Under the pieces are notes generated by a model. The model saw only the letters and a program-made list of their open reading frames with translations, did no database searches and was not told where the DNA came from. Both the position numbers and the translations under genes were made by a program. Shown here piece after piece: positions 9,466-64,000 of a stretch of DNA of 64,000 bases (the first letter of the stretch is position 1; each line of letters starts with the position of its first letter). The stretch is from Shigella phage Moonfish, in the sequence record PQ613263; one strand, written 5' to 3'.

Positions 9466-12400
9466 TTGAACAGGAAACATGCTATGTCAACATTTGACCG
9501 TCTGGCAGGTTTCGCAGACAGCATCACTAATGCCAAGCAAGTCGATGTCTCTACTGCAACCTCTCAGAAGCAAGCTGCACAAGGGCAAAGCCCTTTCCAA
9601 TTAACCCCAGAGAATGCTTACAATCTCCAGACTGGACGTGTAGGTAATCTTGGAACTGGTGCATTCGAACCAGGTTCACTTCAGGCTGACTTCACTCAAG
9701 CCTCCCCATTAGAAATCATTAATAAGTACGGTAATGAGAAAGGTTTACAGATTCTTAATAGCCGAGCTAATGCTGCTGATGTTGTACGTCAGGACTTATC
9801 TAAACAGCGTACTAACGCAGAAGCATTTGGCGATACTCTTTCTGGTGTTGGTCTTGGTGTTGCTAATACCCTTGGGGGCATTGCTGCTCTTGGCACAGGT
9901 CTGGTCAATGATAATGCCGGGGCATCCATTGCTTCCGGGATGGATTGGCTGAATGAAGGTGTACGCAATCTCCAGTCTGATGCACTGAATGCTACCCGTA
10001 AAGTTGTTCAGAATCAGAACCAGATTTCTGCTCAAAAGAACCAGAAACTTTACGAGCAAGATATTAAGAATGGGGAGAACGATTTGGTTGCCTCCCTGTC
10101 TCGCATTGGTCGTGACGCTTTTGATTCTGTTGCTAATACACTTGATAATGGTATGGCTGCTACCGATGGACTGAGCGAAGGTGTTGGTTCCCTCTTTACT
10201 GCTGGTCCACTTATCCGTGGTGTGTCTGCATTAGGTAAAGTAATGGTTGGTGGTGATAAAGCTGTTAGGGGTATTACCTTAGCTGCTGAGTTGGGTTCAC
10301 GTCCTGCACAGGTTGCACTGTCTGCTGGTCGCGTTGCTGCACCTGCTATTGCAATCGGTGGCATGGAAGCAGGTGGTGCATACCAACAGACTGCATCTGA
10401 AATCATGAAGATGTCCCACCAAGAATTGGCAAGTAAGTCTCCTGTTTACCAACAACATATTGCTGATGGTTTACCTCCTGATGAAGCACGTCGTCAGACT
10501 GCATCTGAAACAGGTATCACTGCTGCTGGCTTAACTGCTCCAGTTGCTGCTGCTACTGGTCCACTGGTATCTCGCTTTGAACTTAACCCACTTAGAGTAG
10601 GTTCACTGGCTGGTGCTGGTTCTAATATGTTACGTGAGACTGTAGAAGAAGGTATTCAATCCGGCTTTGGTCAGTTCGCACAGAATACTGCAATCAAGGA
10701 AAATGTTGATGCATCCCGTGACACCCTCAAAGGGGTCGGTGAGCAAGCAGGGCTTGGTGCACTCTACGGCTTCGGTAGTGCTGGAGTTGCTCAAGCTCCT
10801 GGTGCAACTGTTAAAGCTGCTGGTGCTGCCACTGCTCCTGTTGTACGTACTACCCTGGCTGGTGCTTCTCTGGTTGGTAATGCATTAGCTAAAGCTGCTT
10901 CCCCTATTACTAACATTCTGGTTCAACGTGGTGAAGAAGTTGCTAAGCGTAATGAACAAGCATCCCCTGTAGCTGATGCTACGGTTAATGCTGCTGCACA
11001 AGAAGCTACTGCTCAGGCAGAACAAGCACAAGCGACTGTACAGGAAGCAGTAGATGCAATGGATATCTCTCCTGAGGAGAAGGCTGCTGCTACTCAGTAT
11101 GCTGCTGACTTAACTCAGGCAATGAACTTTGACCCTGTAGAATTGGAACAAGCTAACCCGGTAATTCGTGAAGCTGTTTCTGGTTCCACTAACCGTGTTG
11201 AAGCTATTCAGAAGATGGCTGACTTGGTTAATACAGCAGAAGACCCTAACGTTCAAATGGAAGCTGCTATCCAGATGTATGACAACATCATGTCTATGGA
11301 TAGCTTCATTAACCGTGACCCAGGTGCACTGGCTAATCTGGAACAGGGTTCACCTGCTGCTACAATCGTAGACCAGTTCTCTGGTCTGATGGCTAACGTA
11401 CAGAATACACCGAAGGTACTTCGTGCATTCCGTGCTATCCATTCCATGATTCAGGAACAGGCTGAAGCAGGTAAGCTGAAAGCTACTGAAGAAGCTAACC
11501 AAGCTCAAGCAAACAACATTGCCATGGCTGCTGACGTGTCTCCAGAAGTATTGGATGCAGATTCAGTGAACATGGTTCTGAAACATGCAAGTGAAGGTAA
11601 GATTACACTGGGGAATCGTCAACGTGCTGCCCTGCAATCTGCTGCTGCCTTGTTACAGGGTGCACGAGAGTTTGACGCTAAAGCAGAAGAACTAGGCTTA
11701 CGTCCTCAAGACATTGTTAGTAAACAAATTAAAACCGACGAGTCTCGTTCTAACGAAGGACAGTACTCTGCGTTGCAACATGCGAAACGCATTCGTTCTG
11801 CGTATAACTCTGGTAACTTCGATTTGGCTTACGCTTATCTGAGCGACTTTATGAAGTTCGCCCAGCACATGCAGAATAAGGTCGGAGCGTTGAATGAGCA
11901 TCTGATTTCTGGGAATGCGGATAAGAATAAGTCTGTTCATTATCAGGCTCTCTCGCCTTCCCGTGAATGGGTACGTAGTCGTACTGGCCTCGGTGTCAAT
12001 CCTTACGATACCAAGTCTGTTAAGTTTGCCCAGCAAGTAGGACTGGAGGCCAAAACCGTAGCTGATATTGCTAACGCACTTGCTACGGCTTACCCGGAGC
12101 TTAATGTTTCTCATGTGAAAGTTACCTCGTTGGATTCACGTCTGAACAAGCCAGCTGCCCAGGTAGTTAAAGAGTTCCGTCAAGGTGGTCTTGATGCCAC
12201 TCAGTCTCAACAGACCAATGAACCAGTGAATCAGGTTGATGAATCTCCTGCACCAGTGCAAGAGGACACTACTACTGTACAGCCTAAAGCTAAACCTGTG
12301 GTAGAAAATAAGACTGCTCCTACTAAGGAGACTAGCCCAAAAACAGAAGAAGTCTCTACTACCAAGTCTGAAACAGTAGAAGCTACCCTCACTAATGAGG

Positions 12401-15400
12401 ATACCATCCAGGAAGTAGCTGAAACCAAAACAGAAATGGAAACAGTGTTCCCCGTCTATAACAATGAAAAGACACCGAACCAGTTCCTGAAAGCATTTAC
12501 CCTACCAGAAGAACCTAAGTCTCGTACCATTGGTTCTGAGTCTCCGTTGACTGATGTTAAGCAAGCACTGTCTTCTGTTGCTCGCTTTGAAGCATTCACT
12601 CAAAAAGAAAATAACGCTCTCACAGGTGATGTGATTAAGCGTTATCAGGACTTAATGGACTTTGGTGAAACTCTGAAGACTACTTTGTCTGAACGACTGG
12701 CTAAGTTCCTTGCTAACAAAAATGTCGGTAAACGTTTTGCAGAAGGTACGGAAGCTAACCGTTGGGTAGGTGGCAAACTACTGAATATCGTTGAACAAGA
12801 TGGTGACACCTTTAAGTTCAATGACCAGTTGTTAGAGACTGCTGTGCTTGCTGGTCTGCAATGGCGACTAACTGCTACACAGAATGCTGCTGTTAAAGAC
12901 ATGAAAGACGTAGCTGCTATTACGGGTGTAGAAGCATCTCTGTTACCAGAAGGTATTCTGGCTGAGTTCGAGAATGCTCAGACTCTGGTTGAAGCTACTA
13001 ACTCACTGGCTCAGAAGATCGAATCCTACTGGGGTTTGAACCGTAACCCTAATGCACCACTGGGTTATACCAAGGGTATCCCAATGGCAATGGCTACAGA
13101 GATTCTGTCTTCCCTCATTGAGATGGGTGAAGTTAAAGAGTCTATGCTGGATGTGTCTGAGATTGACCCAGATTCCAATAAGACTGTCGGCCTGTATACC
13201 ATTGAGAAGCTGGATGACAATGATGCCATTAACAAATTCCCTACTGCTATTGAGGAAGCTGTCCTCTTAGAACCAGAAGAGAAAATGTATTTCGGTGACG
13301 ACATTCCTTCCGTGGCTCAAACTCAATTACGTAATCCTGCTGTTAAGAATACCCCGGAACAGAAAGCTGCTCTGAAAGTAGAACAGGCTACTGAGTTCCG
13401 TGTACACATGCCGATGGTTAACTTCTATGAAGCTATGGGCCGTGACAACATACTGGAATTGATGGGTGCTGGTTCTCTTAATCCTGAACTGTTGAACGTG
13501 AACACTGCTAAGTCACTGGAGGGTAAAAACCTGTCCGTGTCCATGGCATATGATTCCTTGTTTGGTGTAATCAATCAGATTAAGGAACAGGAGAATGGAC
13601 TAGATACACCTATCCACTATGGCTACAACATGACCCGTGTAGGTCGTATGCAGATGCTTGGTAAGAACAACCCACAGTCCAGCAAACTGGTACGTGAAGC
13701 AATCCTGCCAACCTTCTCTACTATTGACTTGAGTAATGAAAACAGCCAAACGTTCTCTGACTTCCAGTTAGGTCTGGCTCAGGCATTGGGTATCAAGGTT
13801 CATAATATGTCCCGTGAAGCTATGTCTGAAAAGCTGACCAAAGCTTTGGAAGGTAATCTGAAACCTGCTGTTGATATGATGGTTGAGTTTGATAAGTCTG
13901 GTCACTTACCTGCTGATGCAGTTGATATTCTGAAGACATCTCTGGGTGGCGATAAATCATTCGTAGCTCTCATGGCTCTTATGGAATATGCCCGTTACCT
14001 GAACAGTGATGACCGTGCCAACTTTAATACCCCTCTGTACGTTGAAGCCGATGGTGTAACCAACGGTCCGATTAACGCAATGGTATTAATGACTGGTGGT
14101 AAGTTCACTCCAGACTGGATTAAGAATACTGCTAAAGGTGGTTTGTTCTTCGGTAAAGCTGGTAAGACTATGAACGAACATCGTTCACAGGATGACAGTG
14201 TTGACTTGTATGAAGCATCCACCAATGGTCTGCAACAAGCATTGGGTGAATTGCGTAGTACTTACCGTAACAACGTTCCTGTTATGAGCCAGATGAACCA
14301 TCTCCAGAAGTTAATGGACCTGTTCATCAAAGACTTTAACTTGAATGAAGACGGTACTTTGGACCTGAAACGTGGTATCGCTAAAAACCCACTGACTATT
14401 ACCATCTATGGTTCTGGTGCACGTGGTATTGCTGGCAAGATGGTTAGTGCAATTACTGACACCATCTATGAACGCTTCAGTGACGTTCTGCAAGCACGTG
14501 CTGCTGACCCTAGCATTTCCCCAGCTATGGCGATGTTTGGTAAGGAGGCTGCGTCTGAGGCTGATGCTCAGGCTATGCTGGATACTTTCCTTACTTCTAT
14601 GGAAGCACTGACTGGTAATGTTCCAGTTATGCGTAAAGGCGAACTGTCTATTCAACAGGCAGAAGGTGCTCTGACTGGTAAGTTAGACCCTCAGAAGTTT
14701 ACTGTATCTGGTAATGCCTTGAAGAACCTACAAGAGAACATGCTTCACTTGTTCGTTGAACCAATGCGTACAGGTATCCGTAATACTGTTGGTGAAGGTC
14801 TGATGCACTCTACTGAGAACTTGCAGAAGGCTACTCAGATTCAGTCTCTGGTATTGCAGGATATGTTCCAACAAGCAGTACAGGCTAAACTGGCAGAAAA
14901 AGAAAATGACCCAACGTGGAAGAAGGGTGATTTCTTAACACAGAAAGAACTGAATGAAATTCAGGAATCATTATCTCCACTGGCTCCAATGATTGAGACT
15001 GGCGCACAGACTTTCTACATTGCTGGCAGTGAGAATACTGATGTTGCTAACCAAGTACTGGCTACCAACTTAGATGACCGTATGCGTGTGCCAATGAGCA
15101 TCTATGCCCCGTCACAAGCAGGTGTTGCTGGTATTCCATTTATGACCATCGGTACTGGTGATGGCATGATGATGCAGACCCTTTCTACTATGAAAGGTGC
15201 TCCGAAGAATACCCTGAAAATCTTTGATGGCATGAACATTGGTATCAATGACATCACTGATGCAAGCCGTAAAGCTAATGAGGCTGTATACACTTCCTGG
15301 CAGGGTAACCCTATCAAGAATGTTTATGACTCCTTCGCTAAGTTCATGAAGAATGTAGACTTCAGTAAACTGTCTGATGAAACCAAACAGGCTATCGCTA

Positions 15401-18400
15401 AGTCTGCTCTGGAATACGACCAGCGTGAAGGTGCTACTGATGACCTGTTACGTGTTGGTGCTGAACAGATTGAACGTAATCTGCGTAACATTGCTCTGGG
15501 TGTAGATATTCGCCATAAAGTAATGAACCAGGTACAGACTACTGTTGACCAGATGGCTGCTGTAGGTGCTCCTTATGTGAACAACGGTAAAATTTCTCTG
15601 GAAGGTCTGACTGTAGACCAGCAAGTAGCTAAGCTGAACGAACTGTTTGATGCTGAATTAATCAAGCGTCGTGATGCAGTACGTGCTGCTAAAGCAGAAC
15701 CAGTGAAAGAAGTACCGGCGATGGAGCAGGTTGGTCGTGTGCTGAAGTCTGGTGTACGTCTGCTGTCTAACACTGCTATTACTAAGCTGGCTAAAGAGAT
15801 GTCTCCTGAACAGCAAGCAGTATTGAAAGAAGTACAGAACTCCCTTGCTGCTAAAGACTACAAGGTTGTTTATGGTACTCCTGCTCAACTGGATGCTTAC
15901 GCTATTGAGAAGAACATTACTCGCCCAGCACCGGAAGATATTGAAGCTGCTGAAGCTGGTAATGCATACGGCTGGACTAACTTTGATGATAAGACCATCT
16001 ACTTAGTTACTCCTTCCTTAGAGACTCTGGTTCATGAATTGGTACATGCTTCTACTTTCGAATCTGTACTGGCTCACTATGAAGGTACTCCTAATGAAGC
16101 AGTCCAGAATATTGAAGACCTGATGAACCAGTTCCGTGCTCTGGATGTTAAGGATGAATCTCCGGCAGTACGTGAAGCATATGCTGATGCTCTCAATACC
16201 ATTAATGGTCACTTGTCTAATGGCTTTATTGAGCCAGCAATGGCTAAAGCTGCTGCACTTAATGAGTACATGGCATGGGGTTTAACCAACCGTGAACTGA
16301 TTGGTAAGCAGAAGAAAACCACTGCACTTAAGGCCATGGTTCAGTCTGTATATGAAGCAATTAAACGTCTGGTATTTGGGCGTAAGAAAGCTCCTGCTAA
16401 TGCAGATGATATGTTCTCTGGCTTACTGTTTAACTCCTCCGTAGTTATGCGTGGGCAAGCTCCTACTGCTGCTGTGGCTAAGGACACTACCTTGTTCCAT
16501 AGCAAAGCATATGGAGATAACACTCGTCTGGAAGAGTTAGGACAGACCTTCGATAAGCTGATTACTAACTACATTGGTTCAGAACCAGTACAGCAAGTAA
16601 TCCGTAAAGGTAAATTCTCTGATGCAGTAGTGAATGCAACAAAAGTAACTCGTGATGTTCAGGCTCATGGTTTCACTATGAATATGCAGGAACAGCGTCT
16701 CTTTACTAACATTGTTGCTGCACTGGCTACTGAAGCTGCTATTAGCCCAGCTGCTCTGGCTCGTGCACAGGAATACTATGCACACGTTACTAAGAACCTG
16801 ACCGTTGAAGCATTCATGGCTGACCCGGAAAGTACTAACCCTGCTGACCGTTACTACGCACAGCAGAAGTTCGATACCATCATGGGTGCTAACAATATTG
16901 AGTTTGATGCACAGGGTCGTTCTTCCTTACTGCCTACCTTCGTGGCTCTGGCAATGGTAAGTGAAGATGTACGTAACGTACTGGCTGGCATTCCTGTTAT
17001 GAAAGCAGATAAGCAATCTGGTAATACTGTTGATGCAATGCTGACTAACATTGGTACTGCTGCAATGGCTAGCCTGAATGCTCGTGTAGCAGGAGACACT
17101 AAAGCTACCAACGTGCAAGAAGGTATGGATGCACTGGCTCAGACAATCATGCAGACTAGCCTCAATGCACAGTCTTTCTACGATTCCGTTGCTACTCCTA
17201 GTGGTAATGCTATTGACCGTGCTAACCAGTATCTGGTGGACTCTATTGATGTACTGTCTACTCGTGCTTTAGATGGTGCACGTAATGTTGCAGCTAATAC
17301 CAAGAACCCATTGGTTAAAGGTGCTGCTCATGCTGCACAACTGGTAGCTGCTATTGCTACGGAGAAGAATGGTGCAATCGTAGCCGAAGGTGTTATGGCT
17401 GCAATGAACCAGGGTAAGGTATGGCAACCCTTCCATGACTTAGTTAATGACTTAACTGGTCGTACTAAGAGCAATGCTTCTGTATACGATTTAATTAAAG
17501 CAGTACGTGCACAGGTACAAGCTGACCGTCAGCAATTCCGTGAACATCTGCCTACCACTATCGCATCTAAGTTCAGCCGTAAGCTGACTAATGATGAGTG
17601 GAAAGCAATGCATACCGGCATGGGTAAAACTGATTTAGCTGTACTGCGTGACACTATGTCACTGGCTGAAATCCGTGACCTGTTGTCTGACCAGAAGATT
17701 GTTGACCGTGAAGTGAACAAGCTGGAAGCAGATTTGCAGAAACAAGCTGGGCGTAACTGGCCACTGATTAACCGTAAATCTAAGCAACTGGCTCAGTACA
17801 TGATTAACGGCACAGTTGGTAATAATCTGCTGCGTAATGCTACTGCAATCTCTCGTATGCTGGGCGAACGTCAGTCTGCACGTTCTACTGTAGATGTAGC
17901 TCAACTGGATAAACTTATTACCCTGTATGCACTGGAAGCAATGAGCAAAGCTGACCGTGAGCTGTTATCTTCCCTGGCTCAATCAGAAGTTGATGGAATG
18001 GATTTTGCTACTTCTTATCTGGTTGGACAGCGTAAAGATGAAATGGCTAAAGCTAAAACTGATAGCCGTGCAACATTGAACCAGTATAAAGGGCATATCC
18101 CTAGCGAGACTAAGCAGGGTGTTAACCTGATTGTTGCTGAAGATAGCCAGTTTGCTGATTTGATTGAGAAATCCTATGTACGTCTGGGTACTTATCAGGG
18201 TAGTTCTGCTAACCGTGGGCCAGCACGTAGCTACTACTTCGCACCAGTACAGGCACAGGCTCCATTCTCACAGGGCATCTTACAGAACGTTCGTAATACT
18301 GCTGGTGGTGTAGATCTTGGTACAGGCTTTACGATGGGTTCTATGGTAGCAGGTCGTATCACAGACAAGCCTTCAGTAGACCGTATCACTAAAGCTCTGG

Positions 18401-19836
18401 CCCGTGGTGAACGCGGTAATGAACCACTGCTGCCTGTATACGATGACAAAGGTAATGTAGTTGCATATGAGCAGTCTATAGACCCTAACATGCTGAAGCA
18501 CATTGAGGGTGAGAACCATCTTGCACGTGCAATCGGTGTATGGCGTGGTCGTCAGGTGGAAGAAGCTAAGGCTCAGCGTTTTAATGACATGCTGATAGAG
18601 AACCTGCATAGCATGTATGAGAACGACATTAAGATGTCTGCCTCCAATAAGTCCCAGTACGTGAACCTTCTTGGTTCTAAACTGGACCCAGTAACTGCTG
18701 ATGCTCTTAAGCTGATGAACAGTGAGACACGTCAGAAAGCAGAAAGCCTGTTTGGTAATGGTGAACTGTGGGTACGTCGTGACATGCTTAATGATGCTCT
18801 TGGTTATCGTGCAGCTTCTGTAGGTGATGCCTGGTCTGGTAATTCTCGTTGGTCCCCAGAAACGCTGGATACCTTCAAGAAAGCTATGTTAGGTGTGTTC
18901 GGCAATCGTGCTTATAAGTACACAATGGGAGGTGAGAACCTGGTACAGAACTTAGTTAAAGAAGCTAAGACCCTGATTGTAATTAAGTCAGTAGTCGTAC
19001 CTGCTGTTAACTTCTTGGCTAACCTTTACCAGATGGTTGCTCGTGGTGTACCAGTTAAGAACATTGCTAAGAGCATTCCACAGAAAACTGCTGAGATTAA
19101 CCAGTACCTGAAATCTCGTCTGCGTCAGGTAGATGCAGAAGCAGAATTACGTGCAGCTACCAACCCGAACCAGATTCGTAAGCTTAAGGCTGAGATTCAA
19201 TCCATCTCTGATAGCCATAAGCGTATGAGTATCTGGCCTCTGCTGGAAGCTGGTGAGTTCTCTTCAATTGCAGATGCTGGTATTGGGCGTGATGACATCC
19301 TGATTACCGAAGGTAAACTTCAGGAATATATGGATAAACTGGCTGATAAGTTGCCTAAGTCTGTACGTACTGCTGGGCGGTATGCACTCATCACTAAGGA
19401 TACTGCTCTTTTCCAGGGTATCCAGAAAACCGTTGAGTACTCTGACTTTATCGCTAAAGCAATCATCTATGATGAATTGACTCAGCGTAAAGGCAAGACT
19501 CGTGAAGAAGCACTTGGACGTGTAACTGAAGAGTTTGTTAACTATGACCGTCTGCCTGGTCGCTTCCGTGGATATATGGAAAGCGTTGGTTTAATGTGGT
19601 TCTACAACTTTAAGATTCGTTCTGCAAAAGTTGCAGTATCCATGATTCGTAATAACCCAGTACATGCAGCAATGGCTATGTTGGCTCCAGCTCCTACCAT
19701 GTTTGGTAACGTTGGTCTGCCTATTCAGGACAACGTATTTAGTATTGCTGCTAAGGGTGGGCTGGATTCTTCTTGGGGCTTTGGTCAGGGGCTGCGTGCT
19801 CACAACCTGAACCCTTGGTTGAACCTGGTAAACTAA
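9466..19836 (+). CDS. virion-encapsidated giant RNA polymerase (vRNAP, N4 gp50-like)
   Basis: Single uninterrupted 3456-aa ORF (10.4 kb) at the end of the virion gene module; a protein of this size in this position is the hallmark of N4-like phages. All antisense ORFs inside it are short. Confidence 0.9.
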   Translation: MNRKHAMSTFDRLAGFADSITNAKQVDVSTATSQKQAAQGQSPFQLTPENAYNLQTGRVGNLGTGAFEPGSLQADFTQASPLEIINKYGNEKGLQILNSRANAADVVRQDLSKQRTNAEAFGDTLSGVGLGVANTLGGIAALGTGLVNDNAGASIASGMDWLNEGVRNLQSDALNATRKVVQNQNQISAQKNQKLYEQDIKNGENDLVASLSRIGRDAFDSVANTLDNGMAATDGLSEGVGSLFTAGPLIRGVSALGKVMVGGDKAVRGITLAAELGSRPAQVALSAGRVAAPAIAIGGMEAGGAYQQTASEIMKMSHQELASKSPVYQQHIADGLPPDEARRQTASETGITAAGLTAPVAAATGPLVSRFELNPLRVGSLAGAGSNMLRETVEEGIQSGFGQFAQNTAIKENVDASRDTLKGVGEQAGLGALYGFGSAGVAQAPGATVKAAGAATAPVVRTTLAGASLVGNALAKAASPITNILVQRGEEVAKRNEQASPVADATVNAAAQEATAQAEQAQATVQEAVDAMDISPEEKAAATQYAADLTQAMNFDPVELEQANPVIREAVSGSTNRVEAIQKMADLVNTAEDPNVQMEAAIQMYDNIMSMDSFINRDPGALANLEQGSPAATIVDQFSGLMANVQNTPKVLRAFRAIHSMIQEQAEAGKLKATEEANQAQANNIAMAADVSPEVLDADSVNMVLKHASEGKITLGNRQRAALQSAAALLQGAREFDAKAEELGLRPQDIVSKQIKTDESRSNEGQYSALQHAKRIRSAYNSGNFDLAYAYLSDFMKFAQHMQNKVGALNEHLISGNADKNKSVHYQALSPSREWVRSRTGLGVNPYDTKSVKFAQQVGLEAKTVADIANALATAYPELNVSHVKVTSLDSRLNKPAAQVVKEFRQGGLDATQSQQTNEPVNQVDESPAPVQEDTTTVQPKAKPVVENKTAPTKETSPKTEEVSTTKSETVEATLTNEDTIQEVAETKTEMETVFPVYNNEKTPNQFLKAFTLPEEPKSRTIGSESPLTDVKQALSSVARFEAFTQKENNALTGDVIKRYQDLMDFGETLKTTLSERLAKFLANKNVGKRFAEGTEANRWVGGKLLNIVEQDGDTFKFNDQLLETAVLAGLQWRLTATQNAAVKDMKDVAAITGVEASLLPEGILAEFENAQTLVEATNSLAQKIESYWGLNRNPNAPLGYTKGIPMAMATEILSSLIEMGEVKESMLDVSEIDPDSNKTVGLYTIEKLDDNDAINKFPTAIEEAVLLEPEEKMYFGDDIPSVAQTQLRNPAVKNTPEQKAALKVEQATEFRVHMPMVNFYEAMGRDNILELMGAGSLNPELLNVNTAKSLEGKNLSVSMAYDSLFGVINQIKEQENGLDTPIHYGYNMTRVGRMQMLGKNNPQSSKLVREAILPTFSTIDLSNENSQTFSDFQLGLAQALGIKVHNMSREAMSEKLTKALEGNLKPAVDMMVEFDKSGHLPADAVDILKTSLGGDKSFVALMALMEYARYLNSDDRANFNTPLYVEADGVTNGPINAMVLMTGGKFTPDWIKNTAKGGLFFGKAGKTMNEHRSQDDSVDLYEASTNGLQQALGELRSTYRNNVPVMSQMNHLQKLMDLFIKDFNLNEDGTLDLKRGIAKNPLTITIYGSGARGIAGKMVSAITDTIYERFSDVLQARAADPSISPAMAMFGKEAASEADAQAMLDTFLTSMEALTGNVPVMRKGELSIQQAEGALTGKLDPQKFTVSGNALKNLQENMLHLFVEPMRTGIRNTVGEGLMHSTENLQKATQIQSLVLQDMFQQAVQAKLAEKENDPTWKKGDFLTQKELNEIQESLSPLAPMIETGAQTFYIAGSENTDVANQVLATNLDDRMRVPMSIYAPSQAGVAGIPFMTIGTGDGMMMQTLSTMKGAPKNTLKIFDGMNIGINDITDASRKANEAVYTSWQGNPIKNVYDSFAKFMKNVDFSKLSDETKQAIAKSALEYDQREGATDDLLRVGAEQIERNLRNIALGVDIRHKVMNQVQTTVDQMAAVGAPYVNNGKISLEGLTVDQQVAKLNELFDAELIKRRDAVRAAKAEPVKEVPAMEQVGRVLKSGVRLLSNTAITKLAKEMSPEQQAVLKEVQNSLAAKDYKVVYGTPAQLDAYAIEKNITRPAPEDIEAAEAGNAYGWTNFDDKTIYLVTPSLETLVHELVHASTFESVLAHYEGTPNEAVQNIEDLMNQFRALDVKDESPAVREAYADALNTINGHLSNGFIEPAMAKAAALNEYMAWGLTNRELIGKQKKTTALKAMVQSVYEAIKRLVFGRKKAPANADDMFSGLLFNSSVVMRGQAPTAAVAKDTTLFHSKAYGDNTRLEELGQTFDKLITNYIGSEPVQQVIRKGKFSDAVVNATKVTRDVQAHGFTMNMQEQRLFTNIVAALATEAAISPAALARAQEYYAHVTKNLTVEAFMADPESTNPADRYYAQQKFDTIMGANNIEFDAQGRSSLLPTFVALAMVSEDVRNVLAGIPVMKADKQSGNTVDAMLTNIGTAAMASLNARVAGDTKATNVQEGMDALAQTIMQTSLNAQSFYDSVATPSGNAIDRANQYLVDSIDVLSTRALDGARNVAANTKNPLVKGAAHAAQLVAAIATEKNGAIVAEGVMAAMNQGKVWQPFHDLVNDLTGRTKSNASVYDLIKAVRAQVQADRQQFREHLPTTIASKFSRKLTNDEWKAMHTGMGKTDLAVLRDTMSLAEIRDLLSDQKIVDREVNKLEADLQKQAGRNWPLINRKSKQLAQYMINGTVGNNLLRNATAISRMLGERQSARSTVDVAQLDKLITLYALEAMSKADRELLSSLAQSEVDGMDFATSYLVGQRKDEMAKAKTDSRATLNQYKGHIPSETKQGVNLIVAEDSQFADLIEKSYVRLGTYQGSSANRGPARSYYFAPVQAQAPFSQGILQNVRNTAGGVDLGTGFTMGSMVAGRITDKPSVDRITKALARGERGNEPLLPVYDDKGNVVAYEQSIDPNMLKHIEGENHLARAIGVWRGRQVEEAKAQRFNDMLIENLHSMYENDIKMSASNKSQYVNLLGSKLDPVTADALKLMNSETRQKAESLFGNGELWVRRDMLNDALGYRAASVGDAWSGNSRWSPETLDTFKKAMLGVFGNRAYKYTMGGENLVQNLVKEAKTLIVIKSVVVPAVNFLANLYQMVARGVPVKNIAKSIPQKTAEINQYLKSRLRQVDAEAELRAATNPNQIRKLKAEIQSISDSHKRMSIWPLLEAGEFSSIADAGIGRDDILITEGKLQEYMDKLADKLPKSVRTAGRYALITKDTALFQGIQKTVEYSDFIAKAIIYDELTQRKGKTREEALGRVTEEFVNYDRLPGRFRGYMESVGLMWFYNFKIRSAKVAVSMIRNNPVHAAMAMLAPAPTMFGNVGLPIQDNVFSIAAKGGLDSSWGFGQGLRAHNLNPWLNLVN

Positions 19837-21494: not shown

Positions 21495-21654
21495 TAGTAG
21501 CTTTTAATAGATAGCTGTATTTGAGCATTATAGTCTGCTCATACTCACACTCTTCTGTCGAAGAATATGTTTACAATACCTAGAGTGCCGGACTGTCTTA
21601 CCGGCATTGTCTTTAGAGTGCTAAGCAATCAGGACTATGTTCTCTATTAATGGG

Positions 21655-21728
21655 TGCCCACTACTGGATTTGAACCAGTGACTTTCCGATTATTAGTCGG
21701 TTGCTTTCCCCGTCTAAGCTAAGCGGGC
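21655..21728 (-). tRNA. tRNA gene (manual fold); anticodon loop CUAAUAA, anticodon AAU if numbering is canonical (Ile-type; A34 is unusual)
   Basis: Folded by hand on minus strand: acceptor GCCCGCT/AGTGGGC (one G.U), D-stem GCTT/AAGC with GG in D-loop, anticodon stem CCGA/UCGG, perfect T-arm ACTGG-TTCAAAT-CCAGT, discriminator A. Confidence 0.6.
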
Positions 21729-21929
21729 ATTGATAGGTGAGTCCTGCCAGGCTTTAACTGGCTCCTTCTTCGCAATCCTTACATACCCCTACATAATTAT
21801 TGCGTTAAGCTTTTTTGTTTAAGTTTAAGTGAAGGCGTTCTTGCTGACTCATAATTAGGTGAGGCGTTTGACGAATGACTAGTTCGTTACTACCTCGTTG
21901 TTTGCCATAAGTACCTGGCGACTTCAGGT

Positions 21930-58797: not shown

Positions 58798-59487
58798 ATG
58801 AGTGAGCTAACTAAGCAGCAGATCATTAATGCCTTACCTGCTAACTTCAAAAACAGTGTGACCCAGGAGTTAGTAGATACAATTAACAACATAACCCAAG
58901 ACCAACTGGTTGCTGAGTCCTTCCGTGAAAACTTCATCTCTTACTCTGGTGTTATGAAAGAGGGTAAGTTTAAGACACAGGACTACATGAATGCAGTTCA
59001 GTATGTGACTTACAAGCACATGGGCTACTCAAATAAAGAAGCCTACTTTAAAACATTCCCCAACCGACAAGCAGAACTTGTAGCACGGGGAACCAGTGAG
59101 AAAGATATTAGTGCTTATGTATCTGCTTATCACAGGGGTAAGTTAGTTAACCTCATCATGGAACAAAGTTTGGTTCCAGTGTGGATTGTGAACCAGGACA
59201 ATTATCAGAAGGCAATCAATGTTCAGGTTGAACTGATGACTACAGCAGCAAGTGAGAAAGTAAGATGTGATGCAGCTAACTCTATCCTTACTCACTTAGC
59301 TAAACCAAAAGACCAGGTGACTAATATCAACCTGGACTTGAGGGAGAACTCTGGGTTGACTGACCTCAAGGCAACACTTGCTGCATTAGCTGAACAACAA
59401 ATTAATGCAATCAATAGTGGTGTACCTACTAAAGAGATTGCTGGTTCTAAACTAGTACGTGCAGATGAGGACATTACAGATGTCTGA
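58798..59487 (+). CDS. first gene of late operon; terminase small-subunit candidate (positional)
   Basis: 229-aa ORF immediately upstream of and overlapping the terminase large-subunit gene. Confidence 0.4.
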   Translation: MSELTKQQIINALPANFKNSVTQELVDTINNITQDQLVAESFRENFISYSGVMKEGKFKTQDYMNAVQYVTYKHMGYSNKEAYFKTFPNRQAELVARGTSEKDISAYVSAYHRGKLVNLIMEQSLVPVWIVNQDNYQKAINVQVELMTTAASEKVRCDAANSILTHLAKPKDQVTNINLDLRENSGLTDLKATLAALAEQQINAINSGVPTKEIAGSKLVRADEDITDV

Positions 59488-61069
59488 GTTAATTAAACAG
59501 GAACTAGATGAATGGCTAGACCAGGTGGACTACTCCCACCTTAATTCTTCTAACTATGTTCCCAGTCAGTTCGCTCTTACCTTTGCCAACTTTATTAAGT
59601 TGGTTAATGGCAAAGAAGGGGAATCCAACAAAACACCTCCGGTTCACCTGAAGATGCTGGATAAGATGATTAGTCCGAACCAGTATGTAGTTAACCTATG
59701 CTTCCGTGGTGCTGGTAAGACTGCTGTGTTCATGGAATACTTTACCTTGTTCTTAGCAGTGTTTGGTCACTTGCCAAGTCTAGGTAAGGTAGAAGGAATG
59801 ATTTACGTATCTGACTCAATGGATAACGGTGCTAAGTCTGCACGTAAGAACATTGAGTTTCGATACAAGAACAGTGAGTTCCTTCAGCAATGGATACCTG
59901 AAGCTACCTTTACGGATAACCTATTAGAGTTCCGTAATGCAGAGGGTCATCGACTGGGTGTTAAGTTGTTTGGTGCTAAGACTGGTCTTCGCGGTACGAA
60001 GATATATGGTAAGCGTCCTACACTCTGTGTACTGGATGACTTGATTAGTGATGGTGATGCTAACTCTAAGACAAGCATGGAAGCTATTAAGGATACTGTT
60101 TATAAAGGTGTGAACCATGCCCTTGACCCGACACGTCGTAAAGTAATCTTCAATGGTACTCCCTTTAATAAGGAAGACATTATCATTGAGGCAGTTGAGT
60201 CTGGTGCATGGGATGTCAACGTATGGCCTGTGTGTGAGAAGTTCCCCTGTAGTGAGGAGGAGTTCCAGGGTGCATGGGATGATCGTTTCTCTTACGACTA
60301 CATCAAAGCCCAGTACGATATGGCAGTTAAGACCGGTAAGCTGGCTGGCTTCTATCAGGAACTCATGCTTCGCATTAGTTCTGAGGATGAACGTCTTGTA
60401 CAAGATAGCGAAATTAAATGGTACAGCAGACAGCAACTATTAAAGATGAAGTCTTGCTACAACTATTACATTACAACTGACTTTGCTACTTCGGAGAAAC
60501 AGACCAGTGACTACAGTGTCATATCAGTTTGGGCTTATAGTTCTAATGGAGATTGGTTCTGGGTTGATGGTGTGGCTAATCGTCAGCTTATGGATAAAAA
60601 CTTTGACGACTTGTTCCGTCTGGTTCAAGAGTACCGACCACAAAACGTTGGTGTTGAAGTCACGGGACAACAAGGTGGATTCATTTCCCTTCTTCAAAAA
60701 GAAATGATTAACCGTAACGTCTTCTTTAACTTTGCATCCTCTGAGGGTGGTAAGCCGGGCATACGTCCTGTAACCTCTAAGCTGTCACGCTTTAACCTGG
60801 TAGTTCCATGGTTCAAGGTTGGTAAGATGTACTTCCCGGAAGAGTTGAGAGATACAACTATTATGGGTCTGTTCATGGGCCAGCTTAAACTAGCTACCAT
60901 TAATGGAATCAAAGGTAAGGATGACTGTATTGATACTATCTCCATGCTGGGTTATCTAAATCCCTGGAAACCACAAGCCGGTATGACTATGGTGGATAAC
61001 AAGGGCGACCCGATGTGGGACGAGGAAGAAGAAGATAGTGTTAACCCACTACGTTCATACATTGTGTGA
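59459..61069 (+). CDS. terminase large subunit
   Basis: 536 aa; N-terminal ATPase with Walker A CFRGAGKTAV and Walker B-like CVLDDLISDGD; C-terminal nuclease-like region. Confidence 0.75.
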   Translation: MQMRTLQMSELIKQELDEWLDQVDYSHLNSSNYVPSQFALTFANFIKLVNGKEGESNKTPPVHLKMLDKMISPNQYVVNLCFRGAGKTAVFMEYFTLFLAVFGHLPSLGKVEGMIYVSDSMDNGAKSARKNIEFRYKNSEFLQQWIPEATFTDNLLEFRNAEGHRLGVKLFGAKTGLRGTKIYGKRPTLCVLDDLISDGDANSKTSMEAIKDTVYKGVNHALDPTRRKVIFNGTPFNKEDIIIEAVESGAWDVNVWPVCEKFPCSEEEFQGAWDDRFSYDYIKAQYDMAVKTGKLAGFYQELMLRISSEDERLVQDSEIKWYSRQQLLKMKSCYNYYITTDFATSEKQTSDYSVISVWAYSSNGDWFWVDGVANRQLMDKNFDDLFRLVQEYRPQNVGVEVTGQQGGFISLLQKEMINRNVFFNFASSEGGKPGIRPVTSKLSRFNLVVPWFKVGKMYFPEELRDTTIMGLFMGQLKLATINGIKGKDDCIDTISMLGYLNPWKPQAGMTMVDNKGDPMWDEEEEDSVNPLRSYIV

Positions 61070-61075
61070 GGAACC

Positions 61076-61786
61076 ATGCAGAAATTATCGGAAGTATACC
61101 GTGGCTTGGCACTAAGTACATTGAAGGGTACTGGCTCAGTCACGGATGATAGATTAGGTATTGAACCAGATAGTAAGCCGGAGATACTGGCAGCTATTAA
61201 TGAAGGACTGGTACGACTGCATAGTCGTTTCCCCCTTAAGACTAATAGCTGCATTGTGGAGATGAAGGAAGGACGTACTGATTATCCCTTACAATCAAAG
61301 TATGCTTACTCCAAGTTTACTAAGCCTACTCTTGAGATTCAGTATCCCTACATCATGGATGGGTTCATGAAACCTTTCCAGGATGATGTTATTAAAATCT
61401 TAAATGTGTTTGATAACTCTGGGAATCGACGTAGACTGAACGACGATTCAGACCCCCGTGCTATCTTCACCCCACGGCCGGATACTATTCAGTGTATGCG
61501 ACCTCGACACTTCGAGGCACTTAATGTAACGTATCAAGCTAAGCACCCAGTGCTTACGGGTGATGAAGAACAGGAAGTTGATTTAGCTGATACGCTGATG
61601 ACAGCACTTCATAACTGGGTGGGTTATCGTTACCACACTGGTTTGAATACTCCTGAAGCTAACGCTAAGGCAGCTGAGTATCTGCAAACGTATGAAAGCA
61701 TCTGTGGTGAGGTTGTTGATTACGACCTGGCTAATGGAAGTATTTCAATTACCGAAACTAAATTTGAACAACGAGGATGGCGATGA
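61076..61786 (+). CDS. virion structural protein (N4 gp67-like by synteny)
   Basis: 236-aa ORF following terminase. Confidence 0.5.
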   Translation: MQKLSEVYRGLALSTLKGTGSVTDDRLGIEPDSKPEILAAINEGLVRLHSRFPLKTNSCIVEMKEGRTDYPLQSKYAYSKFTKPTLEIQYPYIMDGFMKPFQDDVIKILNVFDNSGNRRRLNDDSDPRAIFTPRPDTIQCMRPRHFEALNVTYQAKHPVLTGDEEQEVDLADTLMTALHNWVGYRYHTGLNTPEANAKAAEYLQTYESICGEVVDYDLANGSISITETKFEQRGWR

Positions 61787-62913
61787 ACGCACATACCCCC
61801 TTTGATGCAAACCAGGATTGGACCAATCCTTACTGCCAGAACAGTTCTAATGACCCAATGGTAGATGCATTACTAGGTAATGCTTATCACGTGGTTCGTA
61901 CTGTCTACTGTAACTTGGGTAATCTGAAACTTATCTATGATTTACTGAACCAGTATGGAATGGTTCTGGGTGTACAGTCTGAAGCAGAACTTAAGGCTTT
62001 AACTACTAAGGCTACCTTCGCCCGTATCTATGACAAGACCCCTGCTGGTGACCGTCGGGTTACGGACTACTTGTACGTGGAGGATGATCGTACTGGTATC
62101 ATCCCTGACGATACTGCTGCTACTGGGTCGTGGATTAAAGTAGCAACATCTAGCCGGGAGGATGGTAATAACGGTAATGCGTCTACATATGTAGTTTGGG
62201 GATACACTGCTACCGGTGGTGAAAATACCATTACAGTCCCAACTGATACGGTAGGTGTAGCCTTCATAACCGTGGATGGATTTACTCAAACAAATGGCAA
62301 GGGTTACAGCTTTAATGCTGAGTCTGGTGTAGTTACTCTAGCCCAATCATTGGAAGCCGGCGAAGAAGTTCTAATGTTTCTTACAGGTATGCCTGCTGTA
62401 CCGGATACCCTTAGTATTGATAACTGGCATGTAGTCAACTGGCTCTACAATCAGGGTGCTGCTGTTGGTGGTGAGCAGGTTATTAATATCCCGTTCATAT
62501 TTGCTGATGTATCAGCAGTCTACGTAAATGGTTCACGTTTATATAAGAATCTCGCCAGTAAGTCTTACGAAGTTGATGTACCTAACCAAAGGATTTTCCT
62601 AACAGAACCATTGGTAACAGATGACAGGGTTATTCTTACTATTGGTGGTACAGAAGAAACTATTCAGTTATCTGACAGAACTTTGCAAGAAGTTGCTCGT
62701 GGATTTAACCTGAAGGATTCAGAGGTTATTCTGGATAGTGACCATACAACTTTTCTTAATGACAAGAAAGTTGTGTATGTTAGTAATCAGCAGAAGTCCT
62801 ATAAGTTACCGACCCTCCCTCCTAATGTAAGTATTGCTGGTATAGTTGGTGACCAACTAACCTATGTTCCTGGGAACATTACTGTTACCTTGCTCCCTAT
62901 TACTATCATCTAG
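61777..62913 (+). CDS. virion/tail structural protein (N4 gp66-like by synteny)
   Basis: 378-aa ORF, T/V/G-rich beta-like composition. Confidence 0.5.
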   Translation: MAMNAHTPFDANQDWTNPYCQNSSNDPMVDALLGNAYHVVRTVYCNLGNLKLIYDLLNQYGMVLGVQSEAELKALTTKATFARIYDKTPAGDRRVTDYLYVEDDRTGIIPDDTAATGSWIKVATSSREDGNNGNASTYVVWGYTATGGENTITVPTDTVGVAFITVDGFTQTNGKGYSFNAESGVVTLAQSLEAGEEVLMFLTGMPAVPDTLSIDNWHVVNWLYNQGAAVGGEQVINIPFIFADVSAVYVNGSRLYKNLASKSYEVDVPNQRIFLTEPLVTDDRVILTIGGTEETIQLSDRTLQEVARGFNLKDSEVILDSDHTTFLNDKKVVYVSNQQKSYKLPTLPPNVSIAGIVGDQLTYVPGNITVTLLPITII

Positions 62914-62973
62914 TAACTCATCCCCCTTTCTCACAATTGAAAAGGGGCTTCCTAGAAAAACAATGAGGTTTAT

Positions 62974-64000
62974 ATGAACGAAATGTTCTCACAAGGTGGT
63001 AAAGGTTCAACCGGAATCTTAACCAATAAACAAGCAGTAGCCCGACACTTTGGGGTTAAGCAATCAGAGGTTGTTTACTTCTCAGTAGGTGCTGTGCTTA
63101 CTGGTTACAAAGTCATTTATGACAAAGAGACGCAGCGTGCTTACTCATTACCTGCTAATATTGGTTCAGGGGTTACTGCTGTAAGCCTTAGTCCTGCCGG
63201 GGTATTAGTACACTCTGCTGGTAACGTGGATTTGGGTGCACTAGCTGTTGTCCGTGAAGAATATGTAACCTTACCCGGTTCATTTGATACCGGTGTAACT
63301 GTTAATGCTAAGAATGAACTAGTTGTCTTTACTGATGGTAAATACCGTTGGGATGGTGCATTACCTAAAGATGTTTCTGCTGGTTCAACGCCTGAATCAT
63401 CTGGGGATGTTGGTATTGGTGCGTGGTTACCCGTATATCAAAAAGGGCTGTTACATCTCCTTAGCAGTGATGAAGGGTTTGATGCCGTTTCTGGTAAAAT
63501 CGATTTACCAGGGGCTGTCAAACAGTCATTAAAAAAAGCTCTCTCTGTAAGGGTAAATATTATTAGTTTTGGTGCAGATCCTACTGGCATTACGGATAGT
63601 TCCGACGCAATACAGGCGGCTATTGATGCTGTTTACGCACTTGGGGGTGGTGAGGTATTTATACCTAAATCTACCGGAAGTGCAGGTAATCAGGGCATAG
63701 GCTACCTGGTAACAAAATCTATAATGCTCAAGCCATTTGTTAATCTAAGAGGTGAGGGTATCAACTCGTGTCTTAAAGCCAACACTGATCTCGGTAAAGG
63801 TCTGTTGGTTCTGATGCATGGCGGCGGGATATCTGGTCGTTATTTATATAATTTCCGCTTGCAGGGAAACGGCACTGGTATAGGTATTGGTACAGATATT
63901 GAATCCACTGCTGAGGCAGAACAGCAAATTTACGGTTTCGATATCCAGGGTGTTTGTGCTGAGTTGTTTGAAATAGGAATGCAGTTACAGGGGTTGTGGC
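62974..64000 (+). CDS. tail spike/fibre protein with pectate-lyase-like beta-helix domain, 5' partial (runs off window)
   Basis: ATG at 62974 with GAGG RBS; frame open for 342 codons to the window end (absent from track because it has no stop); ISFGADPTGITDSSDAIQAAIDAVYALGGGEVFIP is the classic N-terminal signature of pectate-lyase-fold phage depolymerases. Confidence 0.65.
   Translation, partial: MNEMFSQGGKGSTGILTNKQAVARHFGVKQSEVVYFSVGAVLTGYKVIYDKETQRAYSLPANIGSGVTAVSLSPAGVLVHSAGNVDLGALAVVREEYVTLPGSFDTGVTVNAKNELVVFTDGKYRWDGALPKDVSAGSTPESSGDVGIGAWLPVYQKGLLHLLSSDEGFDAVSGKIDLPGAVKQSLKKALSVRVNIISFGADPTGITDSSDAIQAAIDAVYALGGGEVFIPKSTGSAGNQGIGYLVTKSIMLKPFVNLRGEGINSCLKANTDLGKGLLVLMHGGGISGRYLYNFRLQGNGTGIGIGTDIESTAEAEQQIYGFDIQGVCAELFEIGMQLQGLW

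Follow-up and report, generated by a model that had tools for sequence, protein, structure and literature searches.

A tailspike gene cut by the window edge joins a G7C-type docking head to a probable Sf6-type O-antigen endorhamnosidase module

INTRODUCTION

The stretch of phage DNA analysed here (64,000 nucleotides, hereafter the window) ends inside a reading frame that has a start and no stop. The original prediction for this end of the sequence was a partial tailspike gene with a pectate-lyase-like beta-helix, setting specificity for the host capsule or O-antigen. The locus raises three questions: what kind of spike is encoded by a gene whose 3' end is out of sight, how such a spike would be held on the virion, and which polysaccharide it would attack. 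We consider it likely that the gene encodes the distal tailspike of a G7C-like podophage, which carries an Sf6-type O-antigen endorhamnosidase module and is docked on a short adaptor protein.

RESULTS AND DISCUSSION

Gene order at the end of a G7C-like genome

The last 24 kb of the window show 88-91% identity over ~70% to the Escherichia phages phi G17, ST4 and PGN829.1 and to the Shigella phage pSb-1, and also match records named Gamaleyavirus; the relatives of this backbone are mostly E. coli phages. The ORF map fits a podophage of the G7C-like, N4-like kind with a genome of about 72 kb. The landmarks and the genes of the spike locus are the following:

1487-2689, putative major capsid protein, from synteny with the Phage_capsid_4 gene of related contigs
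9466-19836, 3456-aa ORF of virion RNA polymerase size
59459-61069, + strand, terminase large subunit (ORF list)
61076-61786, + strand, head-to-tail adaptor, 236 aa (PDB 9D80_B, Moo19 Gp83, E 1.8e-107)
61777-62913, + strand, short gp66-like spike adaptor, 376-378 aa (PDB 9D83_D, B2 Gp49, E 3.7e-104)
62922-62947, + strand, small stem-loop, CCCCCTTT...AAAAGGGG, within the 60 nt that separate the adaptor and tailspike genes
62974-64000, + strand, tailspike gene, 5' part of 342 codons (translation, open-frame statistics, homology to the protein P0058 described below, and dN/dS)

Outside this locus, ARAGORN predicted a single tRNA-Ile with the unusual anticodon AAT (21651-21729, - strand). The order of genes at the window end (terminase, 236-aa protein, 378-aa protein, tailspike) matches that of Bas96 and ST4, in which the terminase, a structural protein of 236 aa, a gp66-like 'tail protein' and another 'tail protein' precede the lysis genes and the portal. 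The terminase ORF is listed from a GTG with 536 aa and overlaps the preceding gene; gene calls in related contigs give 529 aa, which probably puts the true start a few codons past the listed GTG. The 236-aa protein also matches the 'Head to tail adaptor Gp50' of phage B2 (9D83_B, E 9e-33), with a weak Pfam match to SU10_adaptor.

The 378-aa protein aligns with residues 1-378 of the Moo19 tailspike (9D80_D, E 2e-124) and also matches the T4 gp10-like XD regions of CBA120 TSP4-N and TSP2. It is colinear with the first ~379 residues alone of the gp66-like proteins of Bas96 (978 aa) and ST4 (1055 aa), suggesting that it consists of a virion anchor and XD domains and has no receptor-binding domain of its own. 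Since the protein in the gp66 position would have no such domain, the window phage appears to bear a single enzymatic spike. Homologues of the adaptor start at the ATG at 61783, whereas a start at the first ATG, 61777, would lengthen the protein by two residues (MA); translation probably begins at 61783. A short adaptor form of 377 aa recurs in the Logan contigs L006, L007 and L008.

The stem-loop of the spacer has a fold z-score of -2.0, its position corresponding to the one reported between genes 63.1 and 66. A 'terminator-like stem-loop', possibly tied to module exchange, has been described between these genes in the G7C set of phages (bioRxiv 10.1101/542787). We rejected the element of the window as a terminator: it has no T-run, the terminator search called none at this site and its z-score is only -2.0.

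A start codon and an intact reading frame

The tailspike gene is preceded by a ribosome-binding site, GAGG at 62965-62968 (+ strand), with a 5-nt spacer before the ATG at 62974-62976, and by an in-frame TAG at 62953. From this ATG the frame runs through 342 sense codons with zero stops up to 63999; the remaining five frames over the same 1027 nt contain 10-37 stops each. None of 20,000 shuffles of the 62974-64000 stretch was stop-free, and the analytic chance of such an open frame is ~4e-10. Direct reading thus bears out the ribosome-binding site and start codon of the original prediction. It was also right in explaining why the gene is missing from the ORF list, which omits frames running off an end: the window edge at 64000 cuts the gene.

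Homology backs the same start, as MNEMFSQGGKGSTGILTNKQA aligns from residue 1 with CBA120 TSP1, G7C gp63.1 and P0058. The dN/dS values that we computed range from 0.16 to 0.27, with 0.16 for the fragment against its closest homologue (on contig L077) and 0.22 for the receptor-binding part against the tailspike of phage SFN6B. These two values point to purifying selection and indicate that the ORF is real.

A docking head and the start of a beta-helix

Within the visible 342 residues we delimited four features:

62974-63435, + strand, conserved N-terminal docking head, residues 1-154 (Pfam PF18668, PDB matches, ~89% DNA identity to Bas96 and ST4)
63247-63435, + strand, Tail_spike_N domain, residues 92-154 (PF18668, E 1.1e-21)
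63427-63459, + strand, module-exchange junction WLPVYQKGLLH, residues 152-162 (30-nt identity profiles and megablast ranges)
63481-63999, + strand, N-terminal half of an Sf6-type right-handed beta-helix, residues 170-342 (phmmer, Foldseek and identity to SFN6B)

The PF18668 match reaches 77.1 bits against a cutoff of 25 and places a head of the TSP1/gp63.1 class at the N-terminus. In phmmer searches against the PDB, CBA120 TSP1 (4OJ5, E 6e-77) aligns position by position with residues 1-168, and the same residues match G7C gp63.1 (4QNL, E 1e-69) and Gp48 of Shigella phage B2 (9D84, E 1e-63). These first 168 residues would therefore form a docking head that is separate from the enzyme.

From residue 170 the relationship changes. 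Residues 170-342 match residues 136-305 of the Sf6 tailspike (phmmer against PDB 2VBE/4URR/7SG7, E 4e-24). Moreover, the profile search named for checking the original prediction (Pectate_lyase_3, now PF12708, Pect-lyase_RHGA_epim) gave 35.1 bits over residues 194-275, above the cutoff of 27 (E 1.6e-8). This match covers nt 63553-63798 and profile positions 2-75 of 213, the remainder of the domain lying outside the window. The signature quoted in that prediction, ISFGADPTGITDSSDAIQAAIDAVYALGGGEVFIP, spans residues 197-231 (nt 63562-63666), and a partial tailspike with a pectate-lyase-like beta-helix was therefore correctly recognised.

An AlphaFold2 model of the fragment has a mean pLDDT of 80.4, with ~86-95 across residues 21-150. 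Foldseek with this model recovered both sets of structures, the relatives of the head and the Sf6 spike; the alignment with the Sf6 tailspike spans 186-189 columns at an rmsd of 3.2-3.4 A (E ~3e-13). The agreement between these structural matches and the PDB searches indicates that the fragment consists of a docking head and, after it, the N-terminal half of a right-handed beta-helix. 'Pectate-lyase-like' is a fold label only, the specific relatives being the Sf6 endorhamnosidase family. The members of that family are hydrolases with a Glu/Asp pair, not lyases.

Two lineages meet at the junction

The two parts of the protein come with different DNA relatives. Directly after Tail_spike_N, identity to G7C-like phages stops and identity to the SFN6B tailspike starts; on the ORF, megablast ranges cover nt 1-456 and nt 486-1027. 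The first part (nt 1 to ~453) shows ~89% DNA identity to the Gamaleyavirus phages Bas96 and ST4 and to contig L006, whereas the second (nt ~486-1027) is ~94% identical in DNA and 93% in amino acids to the tailspike of SFN6B, an S. flexneri phage of the genus Drulisvirus (KP34-like, Autographiviridae) and thus of a different family from the window phage. The SFN6B tailspike (AVD99004.1) is alike from residue ~163 of our protein on and also has a Tail_spike_N-like segment just ahead of the junction. It differs in its short, distinct N-terminus and its total length of 598 aa, whereas the window protein owes its first ~160 residues to the G7C-like lineage. Its gene follows the endolysin gene in a KP34-like genome.

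A tblastn search of 50,697 phage records with the receptor-binding domain found three phages, all infecting S. flexneri: SFN6B (93% aa identity), HRP29/Buco (48%) and Sf6 (39%). No Schitoviridae record in this collection carried the domain. To the Sf6 enzyme, whose biochemistry has been characterised, identity is about 34-39%, and Leclercia and Rahnella genomes encode homologues at 41-55% that bear the annotation 'glycosyl hydrolase family 28-related'. In related-locus scans with the receptor-binding part, SFN6B alone stood among the matches listed for viral contigs, and distant beta-helix proteins alone among those listed for genome and metagenome contigs.

In a large protein collection, the receptor-binding domain was found at 84-90% identity to SFN6B joined to other N-termini. 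Behind a T7-type tail-fibre N-terminus (PF03906) it occurs in P0057 and P0060, and on at least two further kinds of N-terminal module in P0059/P0062 and P0061; these fusions (P0057 and P0059-P0062) have a YRWDG...GAW segment in common ahead of the domain. The Sf6-type receptor-binding domain is thus a widely shuffled cassette across several phage families. An earlier study of G7C-like phages already described swapping of C-terminal modules at both spike genes of this locus (bioRxiv 10.1101/542787).

A full-length homologue for the unseen 3' end

The window stops at the equivalent of Sf6 residue 305, before the positions of the catalytic acids. The ~970 nt of 3' end past base 64000 would consequently encode these acids, the remaining half of the beta-helix and the C-terminal domain. 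Using the full SFN6B spike as query, a protein search retrieved P0058, an unannotated protein of 665 aa from Logan contig L077 (SRR19631161). It is 92% identical to the window fragment over all 342 residues with zero gaps and has the same junction, across which the contig retains ~95% DNA identity. Residues 170-663 of P0058 align with Sf6 tailspike residues 137-621 (E 5e-103), and its Pfam domains are Tail_spike_N, PF12708 and Tailspike_C (PF21519). P0058 is thus the best proxy for the C-terminus of our protein, and its length predicts a stop codon near 64971.

The Sf6 enzyme cuts alpha-1,3 Rha-Rha bonds, and its E366A/D399A variant is deficient in hydrolysis (PMC6116271). Both E366 and D399 are conserved in SFN6B, in HRP29 gp52 and in the Leclercia homologue P0038, and P0058 contains the motifs RSEAI and LDLDY, retaining the positions of both acids.

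Another public contig, L004 (Logan SRR32252115), matches the window at 100% identity and ends inside the tailspike gene, at ORF nt 827. It was found by an exact-protein look-up with the adaptor starting MNAH; the look-up with the adaptor starting MAMNAH gave zero matches, as did a search of IMG/VR with the exact 40-nt junction pattern.

The two loci differ in their upstream gene. Contig L077 carries two spikes, with an 874-aa gp66-like protein that has its own PF12708 (606-3230) upstream of the P0058 gene (3281-5278), whereas the window phage has the short adaptor only; the Sf6-type spike is therefore found in both two-spike and one-spike configurations of related phages. A third configuration of the locus is seen in contig L005 (Logan ERR15648441), which encodes an identical 236-aa head-to-tail adaptor and a single 956-aa gp66-like spike (10708-13578), followed by lysis genes and no second spike gene.

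Proposed assembly and function

In phage B2, gp48 and gp49 co-purify as one complex whose cryo-EM structure has been solved, and N-terminal residues 10-74 of gp49 (tailspike protein) were modelled in the tail beside the head-to-tail adaptor (PMC11654681). In G7C, binding of gp63.1 requires the XD3 domain of gp66 (PMC8825819). By analogy with both systems, we infer that the tailspike docks on the 378-aa adaptor. The N-terminal anchor of this short gp66-like protein (61777-62913) would adjoin the head-to-tail adaptor (61076-61786), and the tailspike head (residues 1 to ~168) would dock a trimer onto the XD3-type domain of the short protein. The beta-helix from residue ~170 would then bind, as judged by homology, a rhamnose-rich LPS O-antigen of the S. 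flexneri type and hydrolyse it as an endorhamnosidase, with the Glu/Asp acid pair placed between subunits. Such hydrolysis would let the virion reach the outer membrane and set the host range. A literature search found no published activity assay of the SFN6B or HRP29 spikes.

Other readings of the same architecture have to be weighed. The beta-helix could recognise or cleave a polysaccharide other than the S. flexneri O-antigen backbone, either an E. coli or other enterobacterial O-antigen or one with another linkage, or it could bind with little turnover. We regard this as improbable, though far from negligible. At only 34-39% identity to the Sf6 tailspike, linkage or serotype could differ, yet conservation of the catalytic pair extends across the family. 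The occurrence of 41-55% homologues in Leclercia and Rahnella and a backbone closest to E. coli phages also speak for another substrate; however, the closest relative (93% aa) comes from a phage isolated on S. flexneri, and three of the three collection phages with the domain infect this species. The S. flexneri backbone is moreover shared by E. coli O13, O129 and O135, so an E. coli host would not contradict an endorhamnosidase acting on S. flexneri-type O-antigen.

That the spike is a depolymerase of capsule (K-antigen or exopolysaccharide), or a true polysaccharide lyase, is very unlikely. Capsule depolymerases, epimerases and lyases also fall within PF12708, a family defined at the level of the fold, and AlgE epimerases are weak structural neighbours of the fragment, but matches to lyases and epimerases reach E 1e-6 or worse, against 4e-24 (fragment) and 5e-103 (P0058) for the Sf6 family. 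The relatives belong to S. flexneri phages that target O-antigen, and the conserved acid pair is in keeping with a hydrolase; most probably the spike cuts by hydrolysis and not as a lyase. In the 50,697 records only S. flexneri phages (SFN6B, HRP29/Buco and Sf6) carry the domain, so O-antigen is a much more likely target than capsule. Of the two possibilities left side by side in the original prediction, O-antigen gains support from these relatives and capsule becomes much less likely.

It is likewise hard to credit that the gene is decayed or truncated beyond the window and yields no functional spike, a reading that we place slightly below the preceding one. The ~970 nt of 3' end are unseen and the sole public contig with an exact match, L004, also breaks inside the gene; however, this would be the only receptor-binding spike of the phage, given a gp66-like protein with no such domain, and the dN/dS range given above argues against decay. 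An early stop or a missing beta-helix past base 64000, either of which would have overturned the original prediction, is unlikely because P0058 is intact, the fragment aligns to it without gaps and the gene is under purifying selection.

Finally, an O-antigen-deacetylating esterase, as in G7C gp63.1, B2 gp48 and Moo19, shares the N-terminal head and gene position but is effectively refuted for the visible part and hardly conceivable overall, since 4QNL and 9D84 are similar only as far as residue ~156-168 and an Sf6-type beta-helix follows, Pfam finds no SGNH/GDSL esterase domain after the head in the fragment, and P0058 has no SGNH/esterase family on record.

Relation to known spike systems

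On the reading of an Sf6-type endorhamnosidase docked through a short adaptor, every part of the spike system belongs to a described family, namely the gp63.1/TSP1 head, the adaptor of B2 gp49 type and the Sf6-type endorhamnosidase domain. Sf6 gp14 (PDB 2VBK/2VBE/4URR/7SG7) has a homologous beta-helix receptor-binding domain; its virion-binding N-terminus is unrelated, a P22-type head-binding domain in a P22-like temperate phage, whereas the window protein has a TSP1/gp63.1-type head in an N4-like lytic podophage. G7C gp63.1 and B2 gp48 have the same gene position, N-terminal head and upstream partner as the window tailspike, but they carry SGNH esterase (deacetylase) domains in place of its beta-helix glycanase. 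G7C gp66 is a full tailspike, whereas the adaptor of the window, like that of B2, is reduced to the anchor and XD domains; B2 gp49 has 410 aa and its counterpart here 378 aa. CBA120 TSP1 (orf210) and the Ackermannviridae tailspikes related to it have the head of the window spike and a different catalytic domain; CBA120 is a myovirus with a branched complex of four spikes, unlike the podophage studied here.

Biological significance

Earlier publications cover both module swapping at the G7C-like locus and the two-protein spike complex, and the current understanding of these systems is unchanged. What is modestly new is the combination, an Sf6-type glycanase as the sole spike of an N4-like phage, together with the near-identical DNA common to this spike gene and a Drulisvirus. 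The characterised Shigella Schitoviridae (Moo19 and B2) and G7C use esterase spikes, unlike the window phage. This may be the first N4-like phage (Schitoviridae, Gamaleyavirus) with an Sf6-type endorhamnosidase as its only spike, mounted on a B2 gp49-like adaptor, with a module gained by recent exchange across families, the partners being KP34-like and T7-like Shigella podophages; the recent exchange is proposed on the 94% DNA identity to Drulisvirus SFN6B, and we hold the balance on this claim of priority and origin to be even. The locus also exemplifies one receptor-binding domain on at least five different virion-attachment modules of several phage families, joined at the same conserved Tail_spike_N/neck boundary.

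The tailspike gene would be the host-range determinant of the window phage, and its identity as an Sf6-type O-antigen glycanase predicts the serotype class of the host, namely strains with an S. flexneri-type rhamnose backbone. Its receptor-binding module may serve as a ready-made swappable part for engineering or for Shigella detection probes. If the proposed exchange is true, a lineage of E. coli phages would have shifted its host onto S. flexneri-type O-antigen.
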